Shown here: positions 4,419 through 48,885 of the stretch, piece by piece | How the letters are laid out: each line of letters starts with the position of its first letter | Position numbering within the stretch: the first letter of the stretch is position 1 | Origin: Candidatus Omnitrophota bacterium | GTDB taxonomy: Bacteria > Omnitrophota > Gorgyraeia > Zapsychrales > Zapsychraceae | Length of the DNA stretch: 64,000 bases | Assembly (NCBI GenBank): GCA_016931055.1 | Contig: JAFGFL010000050.1 | Span: forward strand, 1,535-65,534 | Reading direction: 5' to 3' | Position numbers and translations under genes: made by a program | Notes under the pieces: generated by a model | What the model was told of the DNA's origin: nothing | Database searches by the model: none | What the model saw: only the letters and a program-made list of their open reading frames with translations

Positions 4419-4422
<4 letters not shown>
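3367..4422 (-). CDS. hypE: Hydrogenase maturation protein HypE
   Basis: AIR-synthase-like fold ending in the diagnostic C-terminal PRIC. I place the start at the internal MKKRNDF Met (ATG 4422-4420), which forms an ATGA overlap with the hypD stop. The track ORF to 4530 is an artefactual extension. Confidence 0.9.
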
Positions 4423-5761
<1,339 letters not shown>

Positions 5762-34114: not shown

Positions 34115-34118
34115 ATGT

Positions 34119-34781
34119 CTAGGTAATTTTTCTTAAGAGGCCTTTCCGAGCGCTGATGACAACAAACCCTCCTTTGCCAAAACCTTTCCTAGGTTTTTCA
34201 AGACGACTTATCTTATCGAACAAAGCAAATATTGCCTGATAATAAGAGAAGGAAGCAAAACCAGCTTCCTTAAGCAAATCCGCGACTTCATTTACGCTAA
34301 AAAATCTCGCCTGTTTATAAAATACACTTTTCTTCCTTTGATAAATTTTACCAAGAAAACTTTCCCTATCGACCATGCCAATGATAATTCTGCCATTCTT
34401 CTTTAAGACCCTTCTCGCCTCGCTAAGGACCAAGCGAGGGTCTTTGACAAAACATAAAGTAATGATAATCGCCACGTAATCAAAAGTGGCGCTGGCATAA
34501 GGCAATTTTTCTCCAACGCCCCTTCGCACATTAATATCTCTTCTTCTGGCAAATTTAAGCATGTTTTTTGAAGGATCAACGCCGTATTGGATAGCAAGGG
34601 GCGCGGCAAATCTCCCTGTTCCCACGCCAATTTCTAAACCTTTACCTTTCTTTGGTAAGGCCCTTTTGATAGCCCCAAGCTCCGAGAGGTAAACAAATTT
34701 ATTCTTGTCATACCATGCGTCATATCTTTCAGTGTGACGGTCAAAAATGCCGCTCATGAGTTGAGGCTTCCTCATCAACAC
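34119..34781 (-). CDS. Class I SAM-dependent methyltransferase
   Basis: LEIGVGTGRF motif I and a Methyltransf_11-like core. The likely start is at MSGIFDRH (34754). Confidence 0.7.
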   Translation of the reverse strand: MLMRKPQLMSGIFDRHTERYDAWYDKNKFVYLSELGAIKRALPKKGKGLEIGVGTGRFAAPLAIQYGVDPSKNMLKFARRRDINVRRGVGEKLPYASATFDYVAIIITLCFVKDPRLVLSEARRVLKKNGRIIIGMVDRESFLGKIYQRKKSVFYKQARFFSVNEVADLLKEAGFASFSYYQAIFALFDKISRLEKPRKGFGKGGFVVISARKGLLRKIT

Positions 34782-35076
34782 AGCCTATCCCTCCTTGAAA
34801 ATATGCTTTTAAAGCTTCCAGCGTGGGCCCGGCATCCTCTCCGGTCACTCGGATCTTAACATGGCTGCAACAAACAGCCCCTAAAAGCAGAATCCCCAGG
34901 ATGCTTTTAGCATTGGCCGTAACAGCGCCTTGTGTCAGTTTAATATCTGCTTTAAACTGCTTGGCAAAATTGACAAAATTTGCCGCTGACCGCATATGTA
35001 AACCTTTTTGACAAGGTATTTTTATGACAATTTCCTTGTCTTCTGATCCCAACGGCATCTCATTTCCTATTTGCAA
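34741..35076 (-). CDS. HPr-family phosphocarrier-like protein
   Basis: GLHMRSAANFV (His15 region) and NAKSILGILLLG (Ser46 region). The start may be at the internal MPLGSED (35058). No other PTS genes occur in the window. Confidence 0.65.
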   Translation of the reverse strand: MQIGNEMPLGSEDKEIVIKIPCQKGLHMRSAANFVNFAKQFKADIKLTQGAVTANAKSILGILLLGAVCCSHVKIRVTGEDAGPTLEALKAYFQGGIGCVDEEASTHERHF

Positions 35077-35090
35077 CGTCTAACTCCATT

Positions 35091-35546
35091 TTAAAAATAT
35101 CTTATTTTAATTTCTACTTTCGTTGTCACAGAATTGGCAATAGCACAGTGCTTGTGGGCCGAATCGTGCAATTTTTCAAGTTCTTCTTTCGATGGGATTT
35201 TTCCGCCGCTGAATTTTGCCCTTGGCTGGAGGACCGCACGTGAGACAACGAGCCTCCCTTCTTCACCCTTTTCCAGAAAGCCAATGGCTTCATCATGATA
35301 TTCCTCAACAGTATAGCGTTTTTTAGCCGCGATAGCCAAAAAAGTTAGCAGATGACAACTGGAGAGGGCAGCCGTTAAAACCTGTTCCGGATTGGCACAA
35401 TGAGGATCGCCTTTAAATTCGGCCGCTGCCGAACCCTGAATACTAATTTCATCGTTAAAAATTATACTATGCCCGCGGTTATAACTATCATAATTAAAGT
35501 CGTTGGTTCTTCTTTCCCATTTTACATCTGCTTTATGTTCTGACAT
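35091..35546 (-). CDS. OsmC/Ohr-family peroxiredoxin-like protein
   Basis: 151 aa with the two family Cys (LSSCHLLTF and HKHCAIANS) and RBS AGGAGGA. Confidence 0.75.
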   Translation of the reverse strand: MSEHKADVKWERRTNDFNYDSYNRGHSIIFNDEISIQGSAAAEFKGDPHCANPEQVLTAALSSCHLLTFLAIAAKKRYTVEEYHDEAIGFLEKGEEGRLVVSRAVLQPRAKFSGGKIPSKEELEKLHDSAHKHCAIANSVTTKVEIKIRYF

Positions 35547-35574
35547 GGGGTGTCCTCCTGATCATGGGCAGGGT

Positions 35575-35745
35575 TTACTGAACGCTTGGGGTAGACTTCA
35601 GTTTTTTATATGCGAGGCAAAAAGGACAAATCTTGCCCAGTTGTCGCATGCCCAAAGCAAATTTAGATCCGGGGAACCGCCTGGCAATAATACAAAGCGG
35701 GCATATTTGGCAGAAAAAAGCGAGCATCCTAACAAATACCTTCAT
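35575..35745 (-). CDS. Candidate 56-aa Cys-rich small protein (unannotated, below track cutoff)
   Basis: MKVFVRMLAFFCQICPLCIIARRFPGSKFALGMRQLGKICPFCLAYKKLKSTPSVQ, with CxxCxxC and CxxC motifs. A strong SD (GGAGGAAAACGCG-ATG) precedes it. It fits the 225-nt gap between the Mrp-type hypB and osmC. Confidence 0.5.
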   Translation of the reverse strand: MKVFVRMLAFFCQICPLCIIARRFPGSKFALGMRQLGKICPFCLAYKKLKSTPSVQ

Positions 35746-35770
35746 CGCGTTTTCCTCCCATATTCAGTAC

Positions 35771-36502
35771 TTAAATATGATTGCGGCTGTCCTTATGAAT
35801 CAATTTATTGACATTTTTAGAGAATTTGGTCTCTAACAGCTTTTTGGGATCGCCGATCGCGCCCTCCAGTTCAGCATCAAAATCAATCTTTCCCCAAAAA
35901 GGAACATGAAGTCTTTTTATTTGCATTTCCACAGATAAATTCTTTTCTTTCATGTTTTGAACAACACCGAAGATAGGGATCTTGAGTTGTTTCAATATAT
36001 TTAACGTCTTTTTCACCGTCTCCATGACCACTTTAGAATGAGTGGTTATGATACAAAACTTCACTTTTTCCATAAAACGAATCACATCCAATGTCACATC
36101 TCCGACCCCCGGAGGCATATCCATAATTAAATAATCCAAAGCGCCCCATTGAGTAACGGCAAGCAGTTCGATGGCCGCCTGATCAAACCCGGCCCTTCTT
36201 AAGGCCAATGTTTTATCCTCCGTATAATAAATAATGGACATAAACTTAACGCCGTTAATCTGCGGCGGGACAATCCCTTTATCCTCAACGGGAGAAATTC
36301 CCTGCGCGCCTAATAGGACATGGCCTGAGGGGCCCCAAAAATCCAAATCCATTAATCCGACTTTATAGCCCGCTTTCGATAGCGTTAATGCCAAGACGGC
36401 GGAAAAAGTGCTCTTCCCGATTCCTCCTTTTCCGCCGGATACAGCTATAATTTTCTTAACGCCTGCCAATCTTTTATTAATGACATTTATTCTCGGATCC
36501 AT
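35771..36502 (-). CDS. Mrp/MinD-family ATPase, probable Mrp/MinD-type HypB nickel-insertion partner
   Basis: Deviant Walker A VSGGKGGIGKST. It is translationally overlapped with hypA. It lacks the CxxC of ApbC-type carriers. Start taken at MDPRINV. Confidence 0.6.
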   Translation of the reverse strand: MDPRINVINKRLAGVKKIIAVSGGKGGIGKSTFSAVLALTLSKAGYKVGLMDLDFWGPSGHVLLGAQGISPVEDKGIVPPQINGVKFMSIIYYTEDKTLALRRAGFDQAAIELLAVTQWGALDYLIMDMPPGVGDVTLDVIRFMEKVKFCIITTHSKVVMETVKKTLNILKQLKIPIFGVVQNMKEKNLSVEMQIKRLHVPFWGKIDFDAELEGAIGDPKKLLETKFSKNVNKLIHKDSRNHI

Positions 36503-36920
36503 CCGGCCCCTCTTTCTCTCCAACGATAGAATCTACCCATATGCCACGGCCTTTTATAATTTCAAAATCCGGGCTCTTGCATTGGGGACACGACATGAAA
36601 ACATGCGCCACCTCCGGGACAAAATGGATCGCCTCAGATTCTTTAAAATTCAATTTTCCCGCATTCGCGAAATTCCACTTGCGCCCGCAATTCCTACACT
36701 TAAAAACAGCCTTTTCATTTTGAAACCGTATTTTCGCCTTTTTAAACAACGATCTTTGGTGCTGTATAATCTCTCGAATGGCAAATTTAAGTATATTTTT
36801 TTCTATCTGCTGCAACTGGCCCAATTTGATGGTGATCCCTTGAATTGCTCCAAGACCTTGTTCTTTTGCAACTTTCTCTGCCGTTAAGACGACGGCTTCG
36901 GCTAACGCCCATTCATGCAT
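36477..36920 (-). CDS. hypA: Hydrogenase nickel-insertion protein HypA (long, archaeal-like form)
   Basis: Starts MHEWALAEAVV, with a zinc ribbon (FKCRNCGRKW ... SCPQCKSPDFEIIKGRG) carrying a long insert between the CxxC pairs. From memory this is very similar to Thermococcales HypA. Confidence 0.85.
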   Translation of the reverse strand: MHEWALAEAVVLTAEKVAKEQGLGAIQGITIKLGQLQQIEKNILKFAIREIIQHQRSLFKKAKIRFQNEKAVFKCRNCGRKWNFANAGKLNFKESEAIHFVPEVAHVFMSCPQCKSPDFEIIKGRGIWVDSIVGEKEGPDGSENKCH

Positions 36921-36978
36921 CTATATTTTCCTTAATAAGACTTTTCATCTAAACATAAACCTTGTTTCGTGCATGCCT

Positions 36979-37659
36979 TCAGCCTTCTTTACAATTGTTC
37001 CTTACAAACAATAACGGAAAAACGATGTCGCTTACACAACAAGGAATCCAGACCGCTAAAAATAAAAATAAAAAGATTAAGGTATAGGAGAACCAATTTA
37101 AAATCTCCCCTTTCGCCATGATGATATGAAACAAAGACGCCCAGGTGCTTAATAATACATGGAGGCTATGAGGAAATTTTGTTGTCGGTTTACAATAAGC
37201 TACTGTTATTCCTAGAATTGCCAAAGGATTAACTAACCACCATTTTTCGATAAACCCAAGGTGTATGCGTTTATTAGGCATATTAAGAAGGGATTCAGCG
37301 ACATAAGGAATCAGAGAATCGCTTATGGTAGCAATACCAACAGATCCAATATAGCCAATTATGGTTAAACTCCAGAAGTTACATTGCCCTTTAACACAGT
37401 TACTTCCTATGCGAGAGCATGTATGAAGTTTATACATTGCCGCGGTAACCAGAGCGCTTAAGAACACATGAAGAGGATGCAGGACGTAAAAAATATTATA
37501 TGAAAACTTATCGGGCAATTTTAGTGAAAATGCCATAATGACTATCCCTGTCATCGTGCCCAATATTGTGAAAGGCGCGTGCCTTCTTAATTCCACTAAA
37601 ATCTGTTTCCCCATTTTCCTGCTTCCAAGTGAAGTATCACACTTTGATAGTTTCCCCAA
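36979..37659 (-). CDS. Hypothetical polytopic membrane protein (about 6 TM)
   Basis: Hydrophobic helices and an HPLHVFLSALVTAAMY motif. An alternative start lies at the second MGKQ (37614). Function unknown. Confidence 0.5.
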   Translation of the reverse strand: MGKLSKCDTSLGSRKMGKQILVELRRHAPFTILGTMTGIVIMAFSLKLPDKFSYNIFYVLHPLHVFLSALVTAAMYKLHTCSRIGSNCVKGQCNFWSLTIIGYIGSVGIATISDSLIPYVAESLLNMPNKRIHLGFIEKWWLVNPLAILGITVAYCKPTTKFPHSLHVLLSTWASLFHIIMAKGEILNWFSYTLIFLFLFLAVWIPCCVSDIVFPLLFVRNNCKEG

Positions 37660-38347
37660 CTTTTATCTCAACAAATTTATCTTTGTATTCCTTTTTAAAA
37701 AACTCTATGGCGGTCTTTCCTGTGCAATGAGTCGGACCGACTTTCTCTATCTCCATGTCTCTAAATTTATTAATAATATCCTTGATAGTCTTTGTGTGTT
37801 TCCCCATCAGATGAAATCCCCCGATGACCAAGTATATTTTTTCAGGAATATTTTGTTTTACATTTTCAATGATCTTGACGATCCCCGGGTGCGCGCAACC
37901 GGTAAGGATCACCAGCCCTCTGGCTGTCTTTAAAATCAACGCCTGCTCAGGCATGTATCGTAAAAGGTACCAGCCCTCTATCTCACCTGTGGTGTAGACA
38001 TTGTCATCGATAAGCGTCAACCGATCTGCTTCCGTTAACAGCCCGCCATAAGATTTAACTTTGTTTTTGAATCGCCTGCCAAAATGAGGGCAGGAATAAA
38101 TTTTAATCTTGTGATTTTCTTCCAAAAGTTTCCACAAACCATTTTTGTGATCCCAATGGTCATGAGAAATGACGACAACCTTGATCTTATTAATATCCAC
38201 GCTTAAGTACTTCATATTTTCAATAAGCCATGTCCCTTTTTCTCCCGTATCAAACAAAATTTTATCATCAACCAAGAATGAAACACCCCATCCGGTATGC
38301 AGGTTTTTATTGTAGCTGTCTTTATCAAAAAGGATTTTTATGTTCAT
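37637..38347 (-). CDS. MBL-fold metallo-hydrolase
   Basis: VVISHDHWDH (HxHxDH-type) motif. Start taken at MNIKILF, preceded by AAGGGGA. The track ORF starts at 38368. Confidence 0.75.
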   Translation of the reverse strand: MNIKILFDKDSYNKNLHTGWGVSFLVDDKILFDTGEKGTWLIENMKYLSVDINKIKVVVISHDHWDHKNGLWKLLEENHKIKIYSCPHFGRRFKNKVKSYGGLLTEADRLTLIDDNVYTTGEIEGWYLLRYMPEQALILKTARGLVILTGCAHPGIVKIIENVKQNIPEKIYLVIGGFHLMGKHTKTIKDIINKFRDMEIEKVGPTHCTGKTAIEFFKKEYKDKFVEIKVGETIKV

Positions 38348-38861
38348 TTTTATCCCCTTTTTTAACATTCGTACCGCGCGTTAATTCTCCCTGCCCCTGT
38401 ATCTTCAGTTTAAGTTTTTCGAACAACGTTAAATAATCGATGATCAATTTCCCGTTCAAATGATCTATTTCGTGCTGAAGCACTCTGGCCATAAGCCCTT
38501 TTGTCTTGACTTCGATGGCTCTTCCTTTTTCATTTAAACCGCTTACGATAACTTCATCTGGCCTGTCTACGGCAACGCCTACGCCGGGAATGCTTAAGCA
38601 GCCTTCTTCCATCTGATCTAAACCTTTTGATTTTAGAATAATCGGGTTCGCAAGTTTGATCGCGCCTTCACCGATGTCTGCGACGATTAATCTTTTGGAA
38701 ATGCCTATTTGAGGTGCTGCCAAACCAATTCCCGCAAAATGCCGCATGGTGAAAAGCATCTTTTCAAAAAGAATGGTTTCGCTGTCTGTCATCTCTTGCA
38801 AGCGCACGCATCTTTTTCTTAAAACAACATCCGGATATTTCTTAATGTCTAAGGGTTCCAT
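38325..38861 (-). CDS. def: Peptide deformylase
   Basis: GIGLAAPQIG, EGCLS and QHEIDHLNG motifs. Confidence 0.92.
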   Translation of the reverse strand: MEPLDIKKYPDVVLRKRCVRLQEMTDSETILFEKMLFTMRHFAGIGLAAPQIGISKRLIVADIGEGAIKLANPIILKSKGLDQMEEGCLSIPGVGVAVDRPDEVIVSGLNEKGRAIEVKTKGLMARVLQHEIDHLNGKLIIDYLTLFEKLKLKIQGQGELTRGTNVKKGDKNEHKNPF

Positions 38862-39208
38862 TCTTTTATTTTGTTCTTATCATCCAATATTAAAATCTGC
38901 GGTTTTATCAACTGAGCCTCGCCATCTTTCGCTAAAACGTATGATAGGATGCAAATCATGTCCCCCGATTCTGCCTGCCGCGCTGCCGGGCCATAGAGAG
39001 CGATGATCCCGCTGTTTTGTTCCTCTTCAATTACATATGTCTCAAACCGTGCGCCGTTGTTAAAATTGACAACCTGGACTTTTTCGTTCGCCAGGATCTT
39101 GCTTTTTAACAAAAGGGCTTTATCAATGCCGATGCTGCCTTCATAGTAAAGCTCCCTCTTGTTGACTATGGCCTTATGAATTTTAGACTTCAGTATCTCT
39201 CTGAACAT
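38849..39208 (-). CDS. panD: Aspartate 1-decarboxylase
   Basis: Starts MFREILKSKIHKAIV..., with the YEGSIGID self-cleavage G-S site. Confidence 0.9.
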   Translation of the reverse strand: MFREILKSKIHKAIVNKRELYYEGSIGIDKALLLKSKILANEKVQVVNFNNGARFETYVIEEEQNSGIIALYGPAARQAESGDMICILSYVLAKDGEAQLIKPQILILDDKNKIKEWNP

Positions 39209-39210
39209 TG

Positions 39211-39993
39211 TTATGACTTAATCTTGCCTCTTCTTTTTAGTGTATCTTCATCACTGATCGGTTTAATTTTCTTGGTTTCAGCCCTATAAACAGAAATAGT
39301 TTTTAGTCCGTTAAAATAACCCTCTATCCTGTCGATTTCTTGCCTGGATAAAGGTTTAACGTCGCAGGGCCTAAGCGGAGTATTGATCTGGACTTCATCG
39401 GGGTTGATTTCTTTGGCAATCTGAGCAATCTCTTGGGCATATTTTCTGTTCTGCTCAATAAACATAATCTGTAATGCCAGCTTCTTTTTAAACATCTGCC
39501 GAAATGTTTTTATGCCGTCAATGACGCGTTCGAAACTGATATCCGGCATAGGTTGATTTATTTTCTTAAAAACGGCCTGGGTCGGCGCGTCCAATTTCGC
39601 GATAACAAAATCAGTCAAAACTAAATCTTCTCTTACGCCTTTATTATCCAATAAAGAAGAATTCGTAATCACGGCAATGTGTTCGCGCCTGATTTGTCTA
39701 ATCGCTTTGACCATCTCGCCTAAATTTTCCGCCAATGTCGGCTCCCCTGCCCCTGAAAACGTTAAATAATCTATCTTCATCGGCGGCAATGACTCTAATT
39801 CGTCGATAATCTCCCGGGTTTCGATAAATTTTCTTCTCTCATTAGTGAAAAATCCCGTTTTGCCGATTTGACAGTAAACGCAATCAAAGCTGCAGATTTT
39901 TCTTCCTTTCGAGACAGGATCTATGCCTAACGAAGAACCCAACCGCCAAGACGGAACCGGACCATAAATATATTTATATTTTTTATTTTGCAT
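39211..39993 (-). CDS. Radical SAM protein (unknown substrate)
   Basis: CSFDCVYCQ motif and a GAGEPTL glycine motif; 260 aa. Confidence 0.75.
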   Translation of the reverse strand: MQNKKYKYIYGPVPSWRLGSSLGIDPVSKGRKICSFDCVYCQIGKTGFFTNERRKFIETREIIDELESLPPMKIDYLTFSGAGEPTLAENLGEMVKAIRQIRREHIAVITNSSLLDNKGVREDLVLTDFVIAKLDAPTQAVFKKINQPMPDISFERVIDGIKTFRQMFKKKLALQIMFIEQNRKYAQEIAQIAKEINPDEVQINTPLRPCDVKPLSRQEIDRIEGYFNGLKTISVYRAETKKIKPISDEDTLKRRGKIKS

Positions 39994-39995
39994 TA

Positions 39996-40823
39996 TTAAA
40001 TCTTCTCTTTGCTCAGTGCAACTTCAATCTTTTTAATAATTTCAATAAACGCCTTGGCTGCATCCGATTCCTTTTTAAAGGACACAAACGGCTTGCCGCT
40101 GTCGGCCAAGGCCACCAACTCCGGGTCTAGCGGAATCCTGCCCAAAAACGGGACATTCAATTCTTGCGCAGCCCTTTCTCCCCCTCCGCTTTTAAAAATA
40201 TCAACTTCATGACGGCAATGCGGGCATATAAAACCGCTCATATTCTCGATAACGCCGATAACCGGGATATGCAGTTCTTTCGCGAAAAGGACACTTTTTC
40301 TCGCGTCTAAAACAGCCACATCCTGAGGAGTCGTAACAATCACCGCTCCGGCAATTCCCGGAATAAGCTGGCACACGCTTAATGGCTCATCCCCTGTGCC
40401 CGGAGGAGAATCGACAACCAAATAATCCAGAACCCCCCAATTTACGTCGCTTAAAAATTGCCGGATTGCCAAAGCCTTCATCGGCCCGCGCCAAATGACC
40501 GGCCGGTCACGGTCCATTCCGGTCAAAGCCAAACTGACCGCCTTCAGATGAGAGGCAGCTTCTACCGGCTCAATACCCAAATCAGTGGTTGTCAGGGACG
40601 CTTGTTCAATCCCAAGCATTTTGGCAATGTTAGGCCCATGCAAATCCGCGTCCAGAAGGCCGACCTCCCGCCCAAAGGAAGCCAGCGCATAGGATAAATT
40701 GACCGCGACCGAAGTCTTCCCAACCCCGCCTTTTCCGCTCATGACGATCAATTTATGTTTGATCCTCGGCATCTTTTCTTTCAAGCGCCGATCTTGTTCT
40801 TCCATTAAATTCTGCTGATTCAT
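39996..40823 (-). CDS. Mrp/NBP35/ApbC-family Fe-S cluster carrier ATPase
   Basis: MSGKGGVGKTS Walker A and the cluster-bridging CPHC motif (GFICPHCRHE). Start taken at MNQQNLM. Confidence 0.8.
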   Translation of the reverse strand: MNQQNLMEEQDRRLKEKMPRIKHKLIVMSGKGGVGKTSVAVNLSYALASFGREVGLLDADLHGPNIAKMLGIEQASLTTTDLGIEPVEAASHLKAVSLALTGMDRDRPVIWRGPMKALAIRQFLSDVNWGVLDYLVVDSPPGTGDEPLSVCQLIPGIAGAVIVTTPQDVAVLDARKSVLFAKELHIPVIGVIENMSGFICPHCRHEVDIFKSGGGERAAQELNVPFLGRIPLDPELVALADSGKPFVSFKKESDAAKAFIEIIKKIEVALSKEKI

Positions 40824-40836
40824 TCTCTCTCTTTCG

Positions 40837-42477
40837 CTATTTGATCGATATGCCCAACAACGCAGGATTAACAAGAAGAACCAGCCCTAGGAGGATCATG
40901 ATTATCCCGCCGATATACTTCATAATTTCCACCTGGCGCTGGGTGACATGCGCCGCTTTAAAGGTGTGGATGATCATAAACACAATAACCGCCAAAGGAA
41001 GGACATAGACAATATTGTAATAAATTAAATACAGGTAATATTGCCATGTGTTTTCCAATCCTTTTCCTGTCAAAATGCCGGTATAAATAATCGGGAACCC
41101 TGCGGTGCAGAGCAATTCTATCAAAGAAGAAAATACCGCAAGGCTAATCGATGCCCCCAAAAGGACAAACAAAGACCCCTTTTCAATATGGGAACGAAGG
41201 TCTCGCATCTTTTGAAACAACGGCCCCTTGTGCTGGTCCTGAATAGTGAGGCTGACCCCTTTCTTAAAGAACAGGATCTCTTTGCAGTTGATGGTCCCGG
41301 CGATCAAAGCAATGAGCGCTAAGGCAATCCTTAACGGCGTCACAAACCCCATATATTTAAAAACATTCAGCCAGGCCGCCATAAACAGAAAATAAAAAAG
41401 AAAGACAACAAAAACGAAGCAGAATCCCACCAGATAAAGCCTTTGCCGGGTACTGGAGGTCGAGACCAATAATCCCAAAAGGCAGGTCAGGACAAACATG
41501 TTGCAGGGATTAAAACCGTCGACCAGGCCAATCAAGAAAGTAAAAAGAGGCAACGGCATGGTGTAACCGCTTTTCTCAATTAAATCCGGCGGCACTCTGC
41601 CCGCGAGAATGAAAAACAAGGCCAACCCAAGGACAGATCCCCCGACAACAATACTGTCCTTAATTTTTGCCCCCAGTCGGAATTTTATCTTCCATCCTGT
41701 CGACGTGCGGACTGCCTCAAAAAATGTGAAAAGGATCCCCATCAAGATTAAAAGAACAAATATCCCGGCAATCACCCTTGAGATGTCCTCTCCCTTTGTC
41801 ACCGACAGAGGCTCGCCGTTCCATTGTAAAACCCAATCGCCAATCTTAACTGCATATTGAAAATCAATCTTGCCTTGCGAGATTTCAAAGGGCATTGCCT
41901 CGACTGTTTCGAATTCAGTTCCCCGCAAAGCATCGGAAATATCCGCGGCCGCCGCCAATCGATGCAAAACCCGGTTTTCTCCCTGAAGGGAATTCCCCGC
42001 CATTAACACACGGTTCTTTGTCCAAATATTCACCCGGCCTGAAAGCCGCGTAATATCCAATTCCTCAAATGCCTTGCTTGAGCCGTCGGGCAAAGCGCAC
42101 TCGGAAATGCCGCTGTGAACGATCTCTTCTGCCGCTTTAAGAACCTCAATACGTCCGACAGCTGTCTTTCTGTCCCCCCAAATAAGAAAAGGAACACCCG
42201 GACGCCGAAAAGGAATAAATTCCTGAAAATATCCATTCTTGACTTCCGTATTATCCTGCCGGGCTTTGTAAATTTCGTATTCTAAAATGACCAAACGGGG
42301 GTTAACGGCCGTCGCTTCCGTAAAAAGCATCGGGTCAGTCACCGCGCAATTGCTGCAACCGTTGCCGGTAATATAAACAGCGCACAATGCCTTATCCGTT
42401 TTCTCTTGAGCATGAGCCAGAGACGAACCAGCCGCACAAAAAAGAAATACAAACCAGATCTGAAGGAATCTTTTCAT
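40837..42477 (-). CDS. Membrane protein: periplasmic CxxC (thioredoxin-like) domain fused to a DsbD/CcdA-like transmembrane core
   Basis: Signal peptide, then GNGCSNCAV, then a multi-TM region with LVDGFNPCNMFVL and ELLCTAGFP (the two CcdA-type membrane Cys). Confidence 0.6.
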   Translation of the reverse strand: MKRFLQIWFVFLFCAAGSSLAHAQEKTDKALCAVYITGNGCSNCAVTDPMLFTEATAVNPRLVILEYEIYKARQDNTEVKNGYFQEFIPFRRPGVPFLIWGDRKTAVGRIEVLKAAEEIVHSGISECALPDGSSKAFEELDITRLSGRVNIWTKNRVLMAGNSLQGENRVLHRLAAAADISDALRGTEFETVEAMPFEISQGKIDFQYAVKIGDWVLQWNGEPLSVTKGEDISRVIAGIFVLLILMGILFTFFEAVRTSTGWKIKFRLGAKIKDSIVVGGSVLGLALFFILAGRVPPDLIEKSGYTMPLPLFTFLIGLVDGFNPCNMFVLTCLLGLLVSTSSTRQRLYLVGFCFVFVVFLFYFLFMAAWLNVFKYMGFVTPLRIALALIALIAGTINCKEILFFKKGVSLTIQDQHKGPLFQKMRDLRSHIEKGSLFVLLGASISLAVFSSLIELLCTAGFPIIYTGILTGKGLENTWQYYLYLIYYNIVYVLPLAVIVFMIIHTFKAAHVTQRQVEIMKYIGGIIMILLGLVLLVNPALLGISIK

Positions 42478-42498
42478 TTGAATAGTCCACCCCCTTCC

Positions 42499-42924
42499 TC
42501 AATACTTTAAAAGATACTCTGCGATCGCATGATAAAGCGTACTGACGGCAAGAATAGAACAATGCCGATGATTTTCGGGAAGATCGCCCAGTCTCTCCAG
42601 GATGTCTCCGGCTGAAATTTTCAATGCCTGTTGAATGGGCTTTCCCGCAATCAGGCTGGCGGCCACGACCGCGCAGGCTTTGGTCGGTCCACAGCCGTCG
42701 GTATAACACTTTACATCTTTAATAATGTCTTGATCGATGACAAGATAAAATTCCATCGAGTCCCCGCAAGGGCCCCGCAACCGGGCATGACTCGTAAAAT
42801 CCATTAACCGGCCCAGAAATTCTTGGTTCTCCATAAAGCAAAGATAAAATTGAGGCATTTTTTCCTGCTGCGCATCAACTTTTTCTTTCATGGATGCCCT
42901 AAACTCCTTTCTATCCTTGACCAA
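42499..42924 (-). CDS. IscU/NifU-N-like Fe-S scaffold protein
   Basis: GPCGDSM, DGCGPTKAC and HRHCS cluster-ligand motifs. Confidence 0.8.
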   Translation of the reverse strand: MVKDRKEFRASMKEKVDAQQEKMPQFYLCFMENQEFLGRLMDFTSHARLRGPCGDSMEFYLVIDQDIIKDVKCYTDGCGPTKACAVVAASLIAGKPIQQALKISAGDILERLGDLPENHRHCSILAVSTLYHAIAEYLLKY

Positions 42925-43754
42925 ATGGCTTTTATGGCGTCCGTTGTCCCATTACTGCAAAATGCCACCGGCGGGACGCCTTGGACAACAGCTTTGGTGA
43001 TATCGTGCGAAAACGGGATCTCCCCCACGGCATCAACACTGTTCTGGGCACAAAAATTCCTGACCTTGCTCGTATATTCCAGATTTAAATCATATTTATT
43101 AATCACGACCTGAGTTCTAACTTTAAATTGATGTGCGGTCTCCCAGACCCGCTTAAGATCGTGCAGCCCGGAAACCGTCGGCTCTGTCACGATGATAGCT
43201 AAGTCTACCCCGGATAACGAGGCAATCACCGGACATCCTATCCCCGGAGGGCCATCAATAATCACATAATCGCAGCCATTTCTTTCCGCTAATTCTTTGG
43301 CCACCTGCCTGATCTTGGCCACAAGTTTTCCTGAATTTTCCTCGGCAACACCCAGCTTCGCATGAACAAAAGGCCCATAACGCGTTTGTGAAACAAACCA
43401 CTCGCCGGCGATATTCTCCTTCATCCGAATCGCCCCGCGCGGACAAAGCTCGTGACATAAGCCGCACCCTTCACAGGAGAACGGCTCAACAACAAAATCC
43501 GGCTTTATGGCCCCAAATCTGCACACCGACATACATCTTCCGCATTGTTTACACAGGCTTTTATCAATAACCGCCGTCTGACCGCCTTTGAATTCATGGC
43601 GCTCTTTGATATCCGGATGCAACAACAGGTGCAAATCCGCCGCATCCACATCGCAGTCAACCATAACTTTATTTTTCACAAGAACGGCCAGAGACCCCGT
43701 GAGAACGGTCTTTCCTGTCCCTCCCTTGCCACTGATGACCAACAAAGTCTTCAT
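42888..43754 (-). CDS. MinD/ParA-superfamily P-loop ATPase with inserted 2x[4Fe-4S] ferredoxin domain
   Basis: SGKGGTGKT Walker A, with CKQCGRCMSVC and CEGCGLCHELCP motifs. Start at MKTLLVI (TAATG overlap with the tauE stop). Confidence 0.8.
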   Translation of the reverse strand: MKTLLVISGKGGTGKTVLTGSLAVLVKNKVMVDCDVDAADLHLLLHPDIKERHEFKGGQTAVIDKSLCKQCGRCMSVCRFGAIKPDFVVEPFSCEGCGLCHELCPRGAIRMKENIAGEWFVSQTRYGPFVHAKLGVAEENSGKLVAKIRQVAKELAERNGCDYVIIDGPPGIGCPVIASLSGVDLAIIVTEPTVSGLHDLKRVWETAHQFKVRTQVVINKYDLNLEYTSKVRNFCAQNSVDAVGEIPFSHDITKAVVQGVPPVAFCSNGTTDAIKAIWSRIERSLGHP

Positions 43755-44560
43755 TAAATGTGCACTCCCCAAAAAAGAAAAATATACTTCAAGGCAATGT
43801 ATAAAAAAATCAAACCGAACAACAGTTTGAGCGATGCCGCGGGAAATCCCTTATTCCAGACGGCCCCGATATACGCGCCGATCATCGTCCCTGCGCAGAG
43901 AATAATGGCCTTATCCACTAAAACAAAACCCTGAAAAAACTTATATGCCGAACTTATAAAAGCATTCACCGCAAAGCAAACCAGGGATGAGCCGATGGCA
44001 ACTTTAATGGGCCGTTTAAGACAATAATTAAACGCGGGGACCAACACGGCGCCTGTCCCAATACCAAAAAGGCCGGGCAGCATTCCCGACACGGCACCCA
44101 CAGATATTTTGGCTAGATAGCTGCCATTTTCGGATCTATCGTCCGTCTCCGATGGCCCTTGAATTTTGCCTATCCCTTCGCCGATCATGCGCAGCGATAT
44201 AACCAAAAAAACACAACCTATCCCCAGTTCAAGCCACGCCGGTTTTTTGGCGATTAACATAAACAAATGAGAAAACAAGGCGGTCGAGAACGCCCCAGCC
44301 GTCATGATCGGGACTAATGACCGTGTGTCGACATGCCCCAATTTAATATGCTTGTACCCTCCGCTAAGGGTTGTACAAAAGACCGCAACCGCTGTCGTTC
44401 CTGCCGCAAACGGGGTTGATATGCCGAAAAGGAAACACAGAACCGGCATAATAACCACTCCGCCGCCAATCCCTAAAAGCCCGCCTAATATTCCGGCGGC
44501 AACGGCACTCCCAAATAACACCAAAGGTTCAAACATAGGGCTATATGTCTTTGTGGGCAA
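43754..44560 (-). CDS. TauE/SafE-family anion permease
   Basis: 268 aa, 8 TM. It has a duplicated 4-TM pattern with GIGGG / GIGTG motifs. Confidence 0.7.
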   Translation of the reverse strand: MPTKTYSPMFEPLVLFGSAVAAGILGGLLGIGGGVVIMPVLCFLFGISTPFAAGTTAVAVFCTTLSGGYKHIKLGHVDTRSLVPIMTAGAFSTALFSHLFMLIAKKPAWLELGIGCVFLVISLRMIGEGIGKIQGPSETDDRSENGSYLAKISVGAVSGMLPGLFGIGTGAVLVPAFNYCLKRPIKVAIGSSLVCFAVNAFISSAYKFFQGFVLVDKAIILCAGTMIGAYIGAVWNKGFPAASLKLLFGLIFLYIALKYIFLFWGVHI

Positions 44561-44996
44561 CAGCTTTCATGACGTTTTTGTACCAGCCGACTCGAATCCC
44601 CTTTTTAAGATCAAAAAACGGATTGTAAGATTTGATATCTAACAGCGGCGTGCCGTCGAGCATATCAACATGCTTGATGATCAAACGGTTTTTGTCCCGC
44701 CGGATTAATTTGACGATACTGATTCCAATCTGATTAGGACGACGGTTATAGTGGCTGGCAAAGATCCCCCTTTCGTGTTTATCCAGATAAGGTTTCGTTT
44801 TAAGTTTGTATCCCCTTGATTTATGAAAGCGATAGATCAACAGGATATGCGAAAATCCTTCAATATCGCTCAACCCTTCTTCATATTTCTTGAAAACTTC
44901 GACTGTACCGACCACCTTTGATCTAAAAGGCTGGATGGGTGTTTCTTTTTTGCATTTAAACGGGGTGTGAATGACGCCGATCGGAATAAGTCTCAT
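44541..44996 (-). CDS. TsaA/YaeB (TrmO)-like SAM-binding protein
   Basis: Starts MRLIPIGVIHTPF, with RPNQIGISIVKL and DMLDGTPLLDIK motifs. Confidence 0.75.
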   Translation of the reverse strand: MRLIPIGVIHTPFKCKKETPIQPFRSKVVGTVEVFKKYEEGLSDIEGFSHILLIYRFHKSRGYKLKTKPYLDKHERGIFASHYNRRPNQIGISIVKLIRRDKNRLIIKHVDMLDGTPLLDIKSYNPFFDLKKGIRVGWYKNVMKAVAHKDI

Positions 44997-45847
44997 TTAG
45001 CTACTTCCTCCTTAATCATATTAAACATGTCTTTAAACTTCACTGAATATTCTGGTTTCTTTAAGACAAAAGGGATTCCGTTTGAATAGAGTTCGGCAAT
45101 CTCGCGGTCAAAGGGGACACGCATTAAAACAGGGATGCGACTCTCCCGACAATATGATTCCATCTTGTCGTCACCGATATCAGAGCGATTAATAACGACA
45201 CCAAACGGTATCTGTAATTTTTTCAAGACCTCAACAGCTAAAACCAGATCATTCAGCCCAAATGGCGTAGGTTCAGTGACCAATATCGTGTAATCACTGC
45301 CCTTAACCGAAGCAACGACAGGACAAGACGTGCCTGGGGGAGCATCAATAATTACAGTTCTGGTCGAATTGACAAATTCTTTGACCTGGCGAATTAACGG
45401 CGGGGACATCGCTTCTCCGACGTTCAGGCGGCCATGAACAAACTGCACCTGGCCTGCGGAGCCGAGTTCGATTGTCCCGATTTCTTTGGGAATTTCCCTA
45501 ATCGCCCCTTGCGGACAGAGGATAGCGCAGGCCCCGCAGCTGTGGCAAAGATGCGGGAAAAAAAGGACGCCTCCTTTTGATTGTTCTTTCGGAGGAATAA
45601 CCGCAATAGCGTGATAAGCGCAAACCCTTTGGCAATGCCCGCAGAAATTACATCTTTGTTTTTCGACTTCGGGGATAAGGACGGAGGCGCTTCTCGTTTC
45701 TTTTATTTCAGGATGAAGGAATAAATGTGCGTTGGGTTCTTCGACATCACAGTCCAGCACCTGCGCGTTGCCTAAAGCAAGGGCTAAATTAACCGCAATG
45801 GTTGTTTTGCCCGTTCCTCCTTTGCCGCTGGCGACCGAAATAATCAT
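44993..45847 (-). CDS. MinD/ParA-superfamily P-loop ATPase with inserted ferredoxin domain (paralog 2)
   Basis: SGKGGTGKT Walker A, with CNFCGHCQRVC and CHSCGACAILCP motifs. Confidence 0.8.
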   Translation of the reverse strand: MIISVASGKGGTGKTTIAVNLALALGNAQVLDCDVEEPNAHLFLHPEIKETRSASVLIPEVEKQRCNFCGHCQRVCAYHAIAVIPPKEQSKGGVLFFPHLCHSCGACAILCPQGAIREIPKEIGTIELGSAGQVQFVHGRLNVGEAMSPPLIRQVKEFVNSTRTVIIDAPPGTSCPVVASVKGSDYTILVTEPTPFGLNDLVLAVEVLKKLQIPFGVVINRSDIGDDKMESYCRESRIPVLMRVPFDREIAELYSNGIPFVLKKPEYSVKFKDMFNMIKEEVAK

Positions 45848-46479: not shown

Positions 46480-46890
46480 TCAATCTTTGTCGTCATAATA
46501 AGTTTGACCCCTATGCAAAAACTGCGATTCAACTCTATTGGGTAAAAAATGCCTTTTGCAGGACTCTAATGCTTTCTCTTCATCAAAATCCCGGCAGCAA
46601 TAAACGTCGATCGTTATAAAATTCTTCGGGCTCAAGGTGTGGATGACAACCGAACTTTCAATCAAAGGGACCCAGCCGGACAGGCCGGCTTTATCAGGGT
46701 ACCTCTCTGCGTCGCTGCGGAAAATGCTCGGAGGAGCCTGCTTTTCCATCCCCAGTTCCCCGACAATCGTGTCAAGGAATCGATAACACAGATCCAGGTC
46801 ATCGCAAACGCCTGGGTTACAATCATAAAGATCTAAAAGAAGCTCATAACCGAAAGACTTTTTTTTGACCCGAGCCTGCGCCGTAGTCAT
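46480..46890 (-). CDS. S-adenosylmethionine decarboxylase-like proenzyme (SpeH/SpeD class 1 type)
   Basis: GYELLLDLYDC and the PLIESSVVIHT self-processing E-S site. Start at MTTAQARV; the track ORF to 46983 overlaps the upstream gene. Confidence 0.65.
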   Translation of the reverse strand: MTTAQARVKKKSFGYELLLDLYDCNPGVCDDLDLCYRFLDTIVGELGMEKQAPPSIFRSDAERYPDKAGLSGWVPLIESSVVIHTLSPKNFITIDVYCCRDFDEEKALESCKRHFLPNRVESQFLHRGQTYYDDKD

Positions 46891-46928
46891 GTGGGTCCCC
46901 CTCTCTCCCGTGCTCTTTGGTAAAATTT

Positions 46929-47111
46929 TTAATTCCCTCTGGTCATCTTCGCGCCGCATTTGGGGCAACTGACGGATTGGCAAGGCACCCCCCTTTCATG
47001 CGAGATCCTTTCCCCGCATTGCGGGCACACGCATTGTCCCCCTGGCCCCGGATTCCCGCCTCCGTAACCACGCCCTTGTCCCCTCGGTCCTGTCCCATCT
47101 TGATTTGGCAT
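46929..47111 (-). CDS. DUF5320-like N-terminus fused to a zinc ribbon (60 aa)
   Basis: MPNQDGTGPRGQGRGYGGG followed by CVCPQCG...CPKCG. Confidence 0.65.
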   Translation of the reverse strand: MPNQDGTGPRGQGRGYGGGNPGPGGQCVCPQCGERISHERGVPCQSVSCPKCGAKMTRGN

Positions 47112-47122
47112 ATGGCACCTCC

Positions 47123-47494
47123 TTACAATTTTGCGCCTTTGGATTGCTTCCCAGGCCCAGGCGAATCCGCTTTCTTTAATTTCCCGGACTTGAAATGATC
47201 TATCGCTTCTCTGACGGGCCCATTTGCCCCGACATATGCATCAATCCCGGCCTGAGTCAACACCCCAAAAGCGTTCGGCCCCACATTGCCGGTCACCACG
47301 GCTTTAACCCCCTTAGTGATCATGAGCTGGGCCGATTGGATTCCCGCCCCTCCGGAAAACTGAATGTTGGGATTTTCTACCGCCTCAACATTTCCAGTTT
47401 CTGTATCATACAAAATAAAATACGTGCTGCGCCCGAAACGGGAATCAACTTTAGAATCCAGGGTCTTTCCTTCGGCAGTAATACAAATAACCAT
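47123..47494 (-). CDS. NifB/NifX-family (dinitrogenase FeMo-cofactor-binding-like) domain protein
   Basis: MVICITAEGKTLDSKVDSRFGRSTYFILYD...AVVTGNVGPNAF, the typical NifX-like small-protein pattern. Confidence 0.75.
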   Translation of the reverse strand: MVICITAEGKTLDSKVDSRFGRSTYFILYDTETGNVEAVENPNIQFSGGAGIQSAQLMITKGVKAVVTGNVGPNAFGVLTQAGIDAYVGANGPVREAIDHFKSGKLKKADSPGPGKQSKGAKL

Positions 47495-47540
47495 AGTTCA
47501 AAGCCTGCCTTTCATAAAAGTTTCTTATCTTTAAAACCTC

Positions 47541-47909
47541 TTAATGACACTCTCCATCGTGTCCATGCTCCCGGCATGCGTCTAAACCGCCTAGCGGGCC
47601 TTTAAGAAAATCCCTGACGGCATCAAGGACTTTTCCCGAATATCCGAAGACTTTGACGCCAGCCTGCAAGAATTTCTGTTGAGCGCCGCCGCCCATCCCG
47701 CCCGCAATGACATGAGTGACTTTATGGCGCAGGATCTCATCGACCGCTTGGCATCCGCCTCCGCCGTGCTGGGCATTATTCGGCACCACTTTTGTCTCCA
47801 TGATTTTTTTGTCTTCAATATTAACAATAAAAAAATATCGGCATTGGCCGAAATGCTGGGAAACATTGCTTTCAAAACCTCTTTCATCTTCGAGCGTAAT
47901 TCCGATTCT
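47541..47909 (-). CDS. NifB/NifX-family domain protein (paralog 2) with Cys/His tail
   Basis: Starts MRIGITLED, with VSQHFGQCRYFFIV and THVIAGGMGGGAQ motifs. The C-terminus is CREHGHDGECH. Confidence 0.75.
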   Translation of the reverse strand, partial: RIGITLEDERGFESNVSQHFGQCRYFFIVNIEDKKIMETKVVPNNAQHGGGGCQAVDEILRHKVTHVIAGGMGGGAQQKFLQAGVKVFGYSGKVLDAVRDFLKGPLGGLDACREHGHDGECH

Positions 47910-47926
47910 CATACCACCCTCTTTCT

Positions 47927-48289
47927 TCATTTGTTATCGGATTCCTGAAGCGCACTTATACGTTTCTGAACATCCGCGAGTTGCTGTTCTAAAAACTGGG
48001 CTTGATCTTTGAGCATCTGGGCCTCATCTTGCGGAGTCATATTTCCTGCGGCGTTAGCGCCATATCCCCGGCCGAAATTCTGCCCTCCACCCGCGCCCCT
48101 CTGCCATCCGAAAAGACCGGTAGCGTAGTAGCGGTTTCGGTTCCCCCGGCCGCCTCTGGCGCCGCCAAAGTTTCCACGGCCACGCCCTTGCCCAACACCG
48201 GCATTAGCAAGCGGCATAACGCAATATCCGTATCCGCCTCCTGTCATAGGCCCTTGCCCTCTTGGTCCTGTTCCGTCATATCCTGGCAT
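47927..48289 (-). CDS. DUF5320-family protein (Gly/Arg-rich + C-terminal coiled coil)
   Basis: Starts MPGYDGTGPRGQGPMTGGGYGYC. The C-terminus is QMLKDQAQFLEQQLADVQKRISALQE. RBS AAGGAGG. Confidence 0.7.
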   Translation of the reverse strand: MPGYDGTGPRGQGPMTGGGYGYCVMPLANAGVGQGRGRGNFGGARGGRGNRNRYYATGLFGWQRGAGGGQNFGRGYGANAAGNMTPQDEAQMLKDQAQFLEQQLADVQKRISALQESDNK

Positions 48290-48305
48290 ATGAACCTCCT
48301 TTTAT

Positions 48306-48320
48306 TGAAAATGATTTCCA
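48306..48320. promoter_or_regulatory. Fur-family 7-1-7 operator (imperfect) upstream of the DUF5320 gene
   Basis: TGAAAAT-G-ATTTCCA, in the 53-nt gap between the fur stop and the ATG at 48289. Confidence 0.5.
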
Positions 48321-48342
48321 TTAATAGTTGAAACAATATCGG

Positions 48343-48816
48343 TTACTCCTTAGCCTGACAATTTCCGCACAATCCATAAAACTGAATGAGATGATTCATG
48401 ATCCTGAAATTATATTTTTTCGACAACCCCTTCTCAGTTTCCTGCAATAACCTCATTTCGTCATCGATAAAATCCGTGTAATCAATGACGCGGTTGCACC
48501 CGGTACAAACGAGATGATGATGGTGATGGGCGCCTTTAGGGCCCTTTGCCAGCTCATAACGCGCCCTTTTGTCGCCGAAATCAAATCTATAAACAAGCCC
48601 TAAATTAGCCAGCACGTCTAATGTCCGATAAATCGTTGTAAGCCCGATGTTAGGATGTTTAGAATGAATACGGCTATAAATGTCTTCAGCGCTTAGGTGT
48701 TCTTCTGTTTTTGACAAAACATTCAGAATAACCTCTCGCGCCAATGTGATCCTATAACCACATCCGCGGAACTTGCCGTGCCACCACAGCGGCCCCATCC
48801 CGTTTTGATTAGGCAT
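48343..48816 (-). CDS. Fur-family metalloregulator with an N-terminal DUF5320-like tag
   Basis: Winged helix (LTTIYRTLDVLANLGLV), metal sites HHHHHLVCTGCNRV and CGNC. The N-terminus MPNQNGMGPLWWHGKFRGCG resembles the DUF5320 N-termini downstream. Confidence 0.8.
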   Translation of the reverse strand: MPNQNGMGPLWWHGKFRGCGYRITLAREVILNVLSKTEEHLSAEDIYSRIHSKHPNIGLTTIYRTLDVLANLGLVYRFDFGDKRARYELAKGPKGAHHHHHLVCTGCNRVIDYTDFIDDEMRLLQETEKGLSKKYNFRIMNHLIQFYGLCGNCQAKE

Positions 48817-48837
48817 ACGCTGTCACTTTCCTTCTAT

Positions 48838-48852
48838 TGGAAATCATTTCCA
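48838..48852. promoter_or_regulatory. Fur-family 7-1-7 operator (perfect palindrome) over the fur promoter
   Basis: TGGAAAT-C-ATTTCCA, a perfect inverted repeat immediately downstream of the putative -10. Confidence 0.55.
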
Positions 48853-48856
48853 TTAT

Positions 48857-48885
48857 AGTTTATTATCTAAAGCCCTATTTGTCAA
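48857..48885 (-). promoter_or_regulatory. Sigma70-like promoter of the fur-headed operon
   Basis: Minus strand reads TTGACA - 17 nt - TAAACT (an overlapping TATAAT is also present), 40-70 nt upstream of the ATG at 48816. Confidence 0.45.

Follow-up and report, generated by a model that had tools for sequence, protein, structure and literature searches.

Why should a Fur-family repressor begin with almost the same residues as two small proteins encoded beside it? The question is raised by a 64,000-nucleotide stretch of a Candidatus Omnitrophota genome (contig JAFGFL010000050.1; the whole 64-kb stretch is referred to as the window), in which a fur gene stands before genes for a DUF5320 protein, two NifX-like proteins, a small zinc-ribbon protein and MinD/ParA-type ATPases with a ferredoxin insert (MinD-ferredoxin proteins in what follows), all genes of the region lying on the minus strand. 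The three N-termini, with residues and coordinates exactly as given in the initial annotation from which this work started, are MPGYDGTGP in the 120-residue DUF5320 protein, MPNQDGTGP in the 60-residue zinc-ribbon protein and MPNQNGMGP in Fur (table 1). The resemblance is real at the level of the clade and not of one sequence, although it is short and worn: the Fur tail is a diverged copy of M-P-x-x-D-G-T-G-P, predicted to be disordered, that precedes an unusual helix α1 (WWHGKFRGC) of canonical structure, and the anatomy of the protein indicates that Fur is most likely a metal-dependent, auto-regulated repressor.

A six-frame scan of the window with the loose expression MP..[DNEG][GC].[GS][PSQ], internal methionines included, returned these three N-termini only, and the chance of meeting M-P-x-x-[DN]-G-x-G-P is approximately 1e-6 per protein. 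The Fur tail matches the tag of the zinc-ribbon protein at seven of nine positions. A position-specific scoring matrix for residues 2-9 of the tag was built from the 38 distinct N-terminal 9-mers of 41 DUF5320 sequences, which had been gathered by full-length homology and not by motif, with 2,171 open reading frames (ORFs) of at least 100 residues from all fetched DNA as the null set. Fur of the window scored 8.95 bits, a value reached by only two of the null ORFs, both of them DUF5320 variants missed by the filter; among its 120 closest homologues, 50 lay above the 99.9th percentile of this set and 76 above the 99th. With hhalign, the Fur N-terminus (64 sequences) aligned with that of DUF5320 (43 sequences) with P = 0.0016 over columns 1-9 only. 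Furthermore, some members of the Fur clade carry the perfect consensus of the tag (MPRGDGTGPIWWHGRF, MPRGNGTGPVWWHG and MPWRDGTGPPWWHG), and in several the exact MPRG[DN]GTGP stands directly before WWHG. The matrix score, the hhalign P value and these exact tags make the likeness significant against background N-termini. That Gly/Pro-rich N-termini should resemble each other by chance might be suggested by the shortness of the nine-residue match, its Gly-rich context and an hhalign probability of only 16%. This is hardly credible, in view of the failure of every unrelated N-terminus among approximately 2,170 ORFs to reach 8.95 bits, the number of clade members above the 99.9th percentile, the exact tags in Fur itself and the confinement of the three matches in 64 kb to one operon.

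Fur has at least 1,852 database matches at E ≤ 1e-5; the best 120 of these, which are 69-100% identical to it, have the full 10-residue tail except for a few apparently 5′-truncated entries, and in 111 of the 120 it measures exactly 10 residues up to the invariant WW. Along the tail, M1 is found in 100% of the homologues, P2 in 71%, Asn, Asp or Glu at position 5 in 79%, G8 in 86% and P9 in 55%, with position 6 occupied by Cys in 39% and by Gly in 38%. The next residues are far more uniform, W11, W12, G14, F16, G18 and C19 being at least 94% conserved, with His (81%) or Gln (18%) at position 13. The possibility of a downstream start codon for fur, considered in the initial annotation, is ruled out, and the start at 48816 is sound. 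A Shine-Dalgarno sequence, AAGGAAAG, lies nine nucleotides 5′ of the ATG and downstream of a promoter and an operator, TTGACA/TATAAT-type promoters are found at the same position in homologous loci, operator, Shine-Dalgarno sequence and start are arranged alike in eight of these loci, and the full order with the promoter recurs where Fur is 37-76% identical. Only 20 of 111 homologues have Met at position 7, which cannot be a general start, and the conservation of at least 94% across residues 11-24 (except H13, 81%, K15, 78%, R17, 86%, and I23) shows that this region is translated.

Modelling with AlphaFold2 on an alignment of 119 sequences yielded the canonical Fur fold (mean predicted local distance difference test score, pLDDT, 84.8), in which residues 1-7 have pLDDT values below 50 and residues 11-19 are helical. 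Residues G20-Y21-R22-I23-T24 are the canonical L1 loop of Fur, at the start of the Pfam FUR model, and residue 17 aligns with residue 13 of Bacillus cereus Fur and with residues 24-25 of Campylobacter jejuni Fur. In 132 Fur-family representatives, a median of 18 residues precedes the L1 loop, compared with approximately 19-20 here, and Gly-rich, basic and aromatic N-termini are found in 30 of the 132 nearest representatives. These data change the initial picture of a tag, complete with a following Gly/Cys segment, set as an extension before a normal Fur domain that would otherwise begin directly with its DNA-binding part. In canonical Fur proteins, helix α1 occupies this place and the N-terminus is of similar length, only the tail of approximately 10 residues is tag-like, and the ‘Gly/Cys segment’ corresponds to the predicted α1 (WWHGKFRGC) and the L1 loop (GYRIT), so that it is not homologous to the GRGxGYC of DUF5320. 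A second block, RGxGY(C), common to Fur and DUF5320 was rejected on the same grounds and because the hhalign match is limited to columns 1-9. No description of a Fur protein with such an N-terminus was found in the literature.

The remainder of the protein is that of a Fur-family member (PF01475). Its matches in Foldseek (E down to 4.5e-13; top match, 9a4a) and in the PDB are Fur and PerR structures, and C104, C107, C150, C153, H40, D82, H98-H101 and D112, each of them either invariant across 119 sequences or conserved in at least 90% of them, align with the ligand motifs of solved Fur proteins, as expected of a Zn(Cys)4 site made of two CxxC pairs and a His/Asp regulatory site. Since both predicted sites are kept, Fur is most likely an ordinary metal-dependent, auto-regulated repressor, and the initial proposal that it senses the loading state of a pathway rather than free metal is disfavoured. 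Among the NCBIfam subfamilies the best match was the Bacillus-type Fur (129 bits, cut-off 220), followed by PerR (88 bits, cut-off 180) and Zur (40 bits, cut-off 167), the cut-offs of every subfamily (Fur, PerR, Zur and Irr) being missed. The protein shares with canonical Fur and PerR (B. cereus Fur, 9ire; C. jejuni Fur, 4ets; Magnetospirillum gryphiswaldense Fur, 4rb1; Bacillus subtilis PerR, 2fe3) the fold, the Cys4 zinc site, the His/Asp ligands, the N-terminal length, a 7-1-7 operator over the promoter and auto-regulation, as predicted for it here. It differs from them in an α1 that reads WWHGKFRGC after a 10-residue MPxxDGTGP-like tail, in its own operator box, in scores below the NCBIfam cut-offs and in a neighbourhood formed by a NifX-like/MinD-ferredoxin operon instead of iron-uptake genes.

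The conserved Cys and His residues of this N-terminal region invite a different explanation of it, namely that the tail and α1 (with Cys6 in many members, His13 and Cys19) contribute to a further site spanning the dimer, for a metal, an Fe-S cluster or thiol redox chemistry. Such a site would confer an Fe-S or redox response, and the likeness to the tag would be incidental or due to similar ligand chemistry. Binding of a [2Fe-2S] cluster has been reported for E. coli Fur. Of 111 homologues, 109 have Cys19, 90 have His13 (20 have Gln there), 43 have Cys6 and 53 have a Cys within residues 2-10, and the invariant Cys23 of DUF5320 lies at a similar distance from the N-terminus. In Desulfovibrio, the regulator of the orp genes, OrpR, senses redox conditions via a [4Fe-4S] cluster (PMC8359166), and a homologue of Orp5 binds a [2Fe-2S] cluster according to work cited in PMC6345978. 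However, Cys6 is not universal (Fur of the window has Gly6), disorder is predicted for the tail, and each monomer would supply only two or three ligands, a small number for a cluster. We regard such a site as unlikely.

Two predicted operators occupy repressor positions, one before fur itself and the other before the DUF5320 gene (table 1), and both have the form expected for the Fur family, a 7-1-7 inverted repeat at a promoter. The box has four strand-matches in the window versus 0.26 expected, a number that none of 100 shuffles reached. A box lies approximately 28-37 nucleotides upstream of the fur start in six of eight homologous loci scanned (loci other than the window are designated by L numbers) and in L134; in L001, L004, L006 and L007 a second one is found approximately 492-498 nucleotides past the fur start, and in L134 it lies in the fur-DUF5320 spacer. 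In the clade the box reads TGGAAAT-N-ATTT(C/T)CA, unlike the classic Fur box, to which the boxes of more distant relatives are nearer (for example, TGAGAATCATTATCA). This difference bears on a further explanation of the N-terminus, in which a basic tail (Arg, Lys or Asn at positions 3-4) and the aromatic and basic α1 would add backbone or minor-groove contacts and tune the recognition of TGGAAAT-N-ATTTCCA. Besides the divergent box, it is in line with the position of R22 in GYRIT, which matches that of Lys15, the basic L1-loop residue that M. gryphiswaldense Fur inserts into the minor groove (PMC4506495), with Arg or Lys at position 4 in 61 of 111 tails and with the Gly/Arg-rich N-termini of many related Fur proteins. 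Such an arm would leave unexplained the specific M-P-x-x-D-G-x-G-P pattern and its identity to the tag of the neighbours, and the tail of the window protein, MPNQNGMGPL, has no basic residue at all, so that we regard it as very unlikely.

The tag itself is not restricted to this locus. When 185,579 species genomes were scanned for DNA that would encode MPRG[DN]GTGP, at least 120 loci were returned. Six matches in Streptomyces (L035, L053, L071, L079, L110 and L115) encode no Gly-rich protein, have no NifX-like or MinD-ferredoxin neighbours and look like out-of-frame chance matches in high-GC DNA. Among the matches listed, the tag is found at the extreme N-terminus of at least four architectures in many bacterial and archaeal phyla, including Desulfobacterota, Planctomycetota, Chloroflexota, Bacillota, Spirochaetota, Thermotogota, Methanosarcina, Hadarchaeota and Thermoplasmata. 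In the first, DUF5320-type, architecture, the tag is followed by GxGPMTGRxAGYC, a Gly/Arg/aromatic region and a coiled coil; in the second, of 65-85 residues, by a Gly/Arg-rich linker and a CxCPxCG...CPxCG ribbon; in the third by Gly/Gln/Arg low complexity only. The fourth, which lies outside DUF5320, combines the tag with a 2x[4Fe-4S] ferredoxin in three proteins (L052, L069 and L106, the ferredoxin being confirmed for L069). A NifX-like or MinD-ferredoxin gene lies within 8 kb in 70 of the at least 120 loci as listed and in none of the six Streptomyces loci, that is, in 70 of the 114 genuine loci listed. In L122 the tag stands on a 58-residue protein with a hydrophobic C-terminal stretch.

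How the tag is set into its host proteins can be seen from the DUF5320 family. Its first 23 residues are near-invariant in 34 homologues and the rest evolves fast, so much so that in two genomes with Fur proteins 91% identical the DUF5320 proteins are 67% identical. In the AlphaFold2 model of the window protein, residues 1-85 (the tag region, residues 1-23, and a Gly/Arg/aromatic segment) are disordered and residues 86-118 form one long C-terminal coiled-coil helix. The tag is a conserved linear motif at a free N-terminus, and its position in predicted disorder fits a docking or ligand-binding motif. Thus, the shared N-terminal tag proposed initially is real, being modular across architectures, linked to NifX-like and MinD-ferredoxin genes, predicted to be disordered and exact in some Fur proteins. 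The accompanying description of both small proteins as DUF5320-like holds for the 120-residue protein, a member of PF17253 whose family N-terminus is the nine-residue tag; the 60-residue zinc-ribbon protein, like Fur, is undetected by the Pfam model and shares the N-terminal motif alone. A full-text literature search on DUF5320 yielded nothing substantive, the term occurring only in unrelated papers. In a Ratteibacteria metagenome-assembled genome (MAG), a DUF5320 ORF has two in-frame tags 40 residues apart, MPGFNGTGPKGQGPFTGKGLGYC...MPRGDGTGPAGMGSMTGRAAGYC (L006:8539-9021); the gene caller took the second start, and the arrangement may be a tandem tag or an upstream remnant copy. A far-reaching and, in our estimation, doubtful idea is that MPxxDGTGP is a universal hand-over or docking signal of the NifX-like/MinD-ferredoxin system of anaerobes on client and adaptor proteins, and that the Fur clade took on a pseudo-client tail, recognized by the machinery under its control or by the Fe-S cargo of that machinery, with which it reads the state of the pathway as well as free metal.

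With regard to Fur, a distinct clade from Omnitrophota, Atribacterota, Ratteibacteria and relatives heads a dedicated metal-sulfur operon resembling the ORP genes of Desulfovibrio and IssA of Pyrococcus furiosus. The source names of the database matches include Omnitrophota, Ratteibacteria and a ‘Proteobacteria’ MAG, Atribacterota coming from the genome scan, and an NCBI entry from a Candidatus Omnitrophica MAG, annotated as ‘transcriptional repressor’, shows 100% identity to the window protein. The DUF5320 gene directly follows fur in ten distinct loci (among L001-L009, L012, L062 and L134), NifX-like genes come next in those with enough downstream sequence, L134 excepted, and most of them go on with the small tag-zinc-ribbon gene, the methyltransferase and MinD-ferredoxin genes. 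In an independent metagenome scan, in which Fur was identified in 77 of 80 loci, DUF5320 came directly after fur in 44 of the 59 loci with enough downstream DNA, and a NifX-like gene lay within 1.5 kb in 30 of 43. The one informative control, a related Fur protein without a Gly-rich N-terminus, adjoins feoB instead.

The composition of the operon varies at its edges. In L158 (fur at 4001-4459) Fur has the perfect tag MPWRDGTGPPWWHGKMKGCGYRLT and no DUF5320 gene is present, the NifX-like genes starting 58 nucleotides past the fur stop. In L011 (613-1601) the N-terminus of a 200-residue Fur relative (P0222, 37% identical) is a Gly/Arg/His-rich stretch of 54 residues; the next gene, which overlaps it by 4 nucleotides, encodes a NifX-like protein with a His/Asp-rich tail, with no DUF5320 gene between them. 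In L134 (5001-5818) a Fur protein beginning MGRGYGRGQGRGHGWG is paired with DUF5320, identical boxes (AATGAAAATGATTTTCATT) preceding both genes, and a peroxiredoxin gene follows, with no NifX-like gene in the vicinity; Fur and DUF5320 can thus be paired in the absence of the remaining operon. The place of the tag-zinc-ribbon gene is taken in L007 (3169-3420) by that for an 83-residue encapsulated-ferritin-like protein (PF22277), and at other loci VIT1, rubrerythrin, NifU or NikR with LarC-type genes are neighbours of the operon; taken together, these neighbours suggest an iron-related context.

What, then, would the tail do in a repressor of this kind? We tentatively propose, at a little short of an even chance, that it is an accessory linear motif contacting the partner of the tag. 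By repressing fur itself and DUF5320 through the two 19-bp 7-1-7 operators past the −10 elements, Fur would carry out its ordinary function, and its tail would allow contact with whatever recognizes the tag on the DUF5320 and zinc-ribbon proteins, candidate partners being the NifX-like protein, the MinD-ferredoxin ATPase or a bound anionic Fe-S species. Feedback from the pathway would be added on top of normal metal sensing, without replacing it. A precedent for the modulation of Fur by a protein partner tied to iron status is YlaN/Fpa, the antirepressor that controls Fur in Bacillus and Staphylococcus (PMC11559061), although there is no YlaN homologue here and the proposed contact would be made through an N-terminal linear motif. 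The complex formed by ORP proteins in Desulfovibrio and the cationic tail of IssA, both described below, are further precedents.

Several observations weigh against this proposal. The main argument against a strictly shared function is that the tail is weakly conserved in Fur, whereas the tags of its neighbours are near-invariant: the frequencies of P2, of Asn, Asp or Glu at position 5 and of G8 given above for Fur contrast with at least 90% at such positions in DUF5320, the median matrix score of Fur tails is 5.2 bits versus 15-18 for true tags, and, among metagenome Fur tails, exact [DN]GTGP is found in 6 of 72 and the loose motif in 21 of 72. The hhalign probability is low, as already mentioned, and the Pfam DUF5320 model matches none of 119 Fur-clade members at E values up to 10. 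Scanning Fur proteins for the DUF5320 prefix, as initially suggested, bears out the likeness at the level of the clade and gives a mixed result for individual proteins. The tag has been lost in L004 (MHGKNCSSP), L006 (MRAKHGLGQ) and L012 (MPRRLFRKR), all of which keep the operon. In approximately 40 paired loci the Fur tail does not co-vary systematically with tags of the same locus, because the DUF5320 and zinc-ribbon tags hardly vary. Finally, with all canonical Fur ligands present, the tail is not needed to explain regulation. In two loci, odd residues are common to the Fur tail and the zinc-ribbon tag and absent from the local DUF5320 protein, namely MPNQ(D/N)G in the window (46929-47111 and 48787-48816) and MPGRNG in L009 (7001-7486 and 10347-10541), which could reflect coincidence, gene conversion or co-evolution.

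The degeneracy of the tail, its loss from operons that persist and the blindness of the Pfam model to it are also what would be seen if it were an evolutionary relic, that is, if the first codons of fur had been copied from, or shared ancestry with, a DUF5320-type 5′ end and now encoded a loose tail without tag function; fur and DUF5320 both have the same layout of operator and Shine-Dalgarno sequence before ATG-CCN. We consider this rather unlikely, since a length of 10 residues in 111 of 120 homologues and a conservation of 77-86% at positions 5, 6 and 8 are more than a neutral tail would show, and since the likeness of the fur and DUF5320 5′ DNA within a locus (45-55 of 80 nucleotides identical) is not above the cross-locus mean of 47 or the shuffled background (mean 44, maximum 55). 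The latter comparison leaves nothing that points to recent copying, and a recent duplication or gene conversion of a 5′ module made of operator, Shine-Dalgarno sequence and first codons found no support.

Table 1. Features of the fur-NifX-like-MinD-ferredoxin region (positions are those of the window).
Feature	Position	Strand	Basis or remark
Sigma-70-like fur promoter, TTGACA-17 nt-TAAACT	48857-48885	-	10/12 consensus matches
Operator 1, 19-bp 7-1-7 inverted repeat AATGGAAATGATTTCCAAT, directly past the −10 element	48836-48854	-	Repeat scan
Fur-family repressor, 157 residues	48343-48816	-	Pfam FUR E = 4.4e-33, residues 20-147
Disordered tag-like tail MPNQNGMGPL, fur codons 1-10	48787-48816	-	AlphaFold2, matrix, hhalign
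WWHGKFRGC, fur codons 11-19, predicted helix α1	48760-48786	-	AlphaFold2 model; strongest signature of the clade (His13, Cys19)
Promoter-like site before DUF5320, TTGTCA-17 nt-TATTGT, overlapping the fur end	48333-48361	-	9/12, consensus match only
Operator 2, AATGGAAATCATTTTCAAT, fur-DUF5320 spacer, past the promoter-like site	48304-48322	-	Repeat scan
DUF5320 protein, 120 residues	47927-48289	-	PF17253 E = 9.3e-17; 62.5 bits, cut-off 27
NifX-like protein 1 (Nitro_FeMo-Co), 129 residues	47541-47930	-	PF02579
NifX-like protein 2, 123 residues	47123-47494	-	PF02579
60-residue protein: tag MPNQDGTGP, Gly-rich linker, CxCPxCG...CPKCG zinc ribbon	46929-47111	-	Same architecture in dozens of genomes
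AdoMet-decarboxylase-like ORF	46480-46983	-	Pfam domain from residue 48
Class I SAM-dependent methyltransferase, 203 residues	45844-46455	-	Synteny kept in L001, L004, L006, L007, L012
MinD/ParA-type ATPase with 2x[4Fe-4S] ferredoxin insert (Orp3/Orp4-like)	44993-45847	-	Family search
TrmO-like protein	44541-44996	-	Family search
ORF reading as membrane protein	43754-44560	-	Translation alone
Second MinD/ParA-type ATPase with 2x[4Fe-4S] ferredoxin insert	42888-43772	-	Family search
NifU-like scaffold	42499-42924	-	Translation alone
Large membrane protein	40837-42477	-	Translation alone
Mrp/ApbC-like ATPase, separate ORF	39996-40874	-	Translation alone
Radical-SAM protein	39211-39993	-	Translation alone
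HypA-like ORF	36477-36920	-	Translation alone
Second ParA/Mrp-like ATPase	35771-36523	-	Translation alone
BioB-like ORF	33038-34114	-	Translation alone

The genes that follow fur are listed in table 1. The ORF of the AdoMet-decarboxylase-like protein, as delimited mechanically, starts at a TTG inside the zinc-ribbon gene and overlaps it; the likelier start is an in-frame ATG at approximately 46889 (MTTAQARV...), past the zinc-ribbon stop. The minus-strand array seems to run on through 33038-42924, where the names given are those read from the translations, without a family search.

Among the known systems closest to this operon are the ORP genes of Desulfovibrio (orp3-4-5 and orp7-8-9; PMC6345978, PMC8359166). 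A single physical complex of Desulfovibrio vulgaris contains Orp3 and Orp4, both of MinD type and with ferredoxin motifs, together with the small Orp5 and the NifX-like Orp8 and Orp9 (PMC6345978). Both systems comprise NifX-like (Di-Nase) proteins, MinD-type ATPases with two [4Fe-4S] motifs and small Cys-/Gly-rich proteins, are restricted to anaerobes and have a dedicated regulator beside the operon, so that the combination that defines an ORP cluster is found in the window. They differ in that the regulator here is a Fur-family repressor with sigma-70-like promoters and not a sigma-54 activator such as OrpR, in that there is no fused Mrp-DiNase (Orp9/MrpORP; matches to MrpORP scored 27-57 bits, cut-off 450) and in the addition here of conserved methyltransferase, TrmO-like and AdoMet-decarboxylase-like genes. 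A second point of comparison is IssA of P. furiosus, in which a PF02579 domain is joined to a cationic Gly/Arg/aromatic tail proposed to wrap anionic thioferrate, (FeS2−)n (PMC5524996). The same two elements, a PF02579 domain and a cationic, disordered Gly/Arg/aromatic segment, are present in the operon. The NifX-like proteins, of 129 and 123 residues, have no long tail fused to them, and the segment is instead carried by the separate DUF5320 and zinc-ribbon proteins.

The two kinds of element met here, a Fur repressor and an ORP-like operon, are both known, and what is new is a variant of both. The Fur clade puts the ORP-like system of Omnitrophota and Atribacterota under the control of a Fur-type, probably iron-responsive, repressor with a recognizable operator, which connects the system with the homeostasis of iron and sulfur and opens the way to predicting its regulon; should the tail indeed couple the repressor to the pathway, it would represent a new way of modulating a Fur protein. 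The more interesting by-product of the analysis is the modular MPxxDGTGP tag of an uncharacterized and widespread anaerobe system. As the role of the ORP, NifX-like and MinD-ferredoxin proteins is still unclear in spite of their wide distribution in anaerobic bacteria and archaea (PMC8359166), the tag provides an entry point, and a nine-residue motif found on several architectures of small proteins is a handle for asking what binds it and whether the free Pro2 matters.

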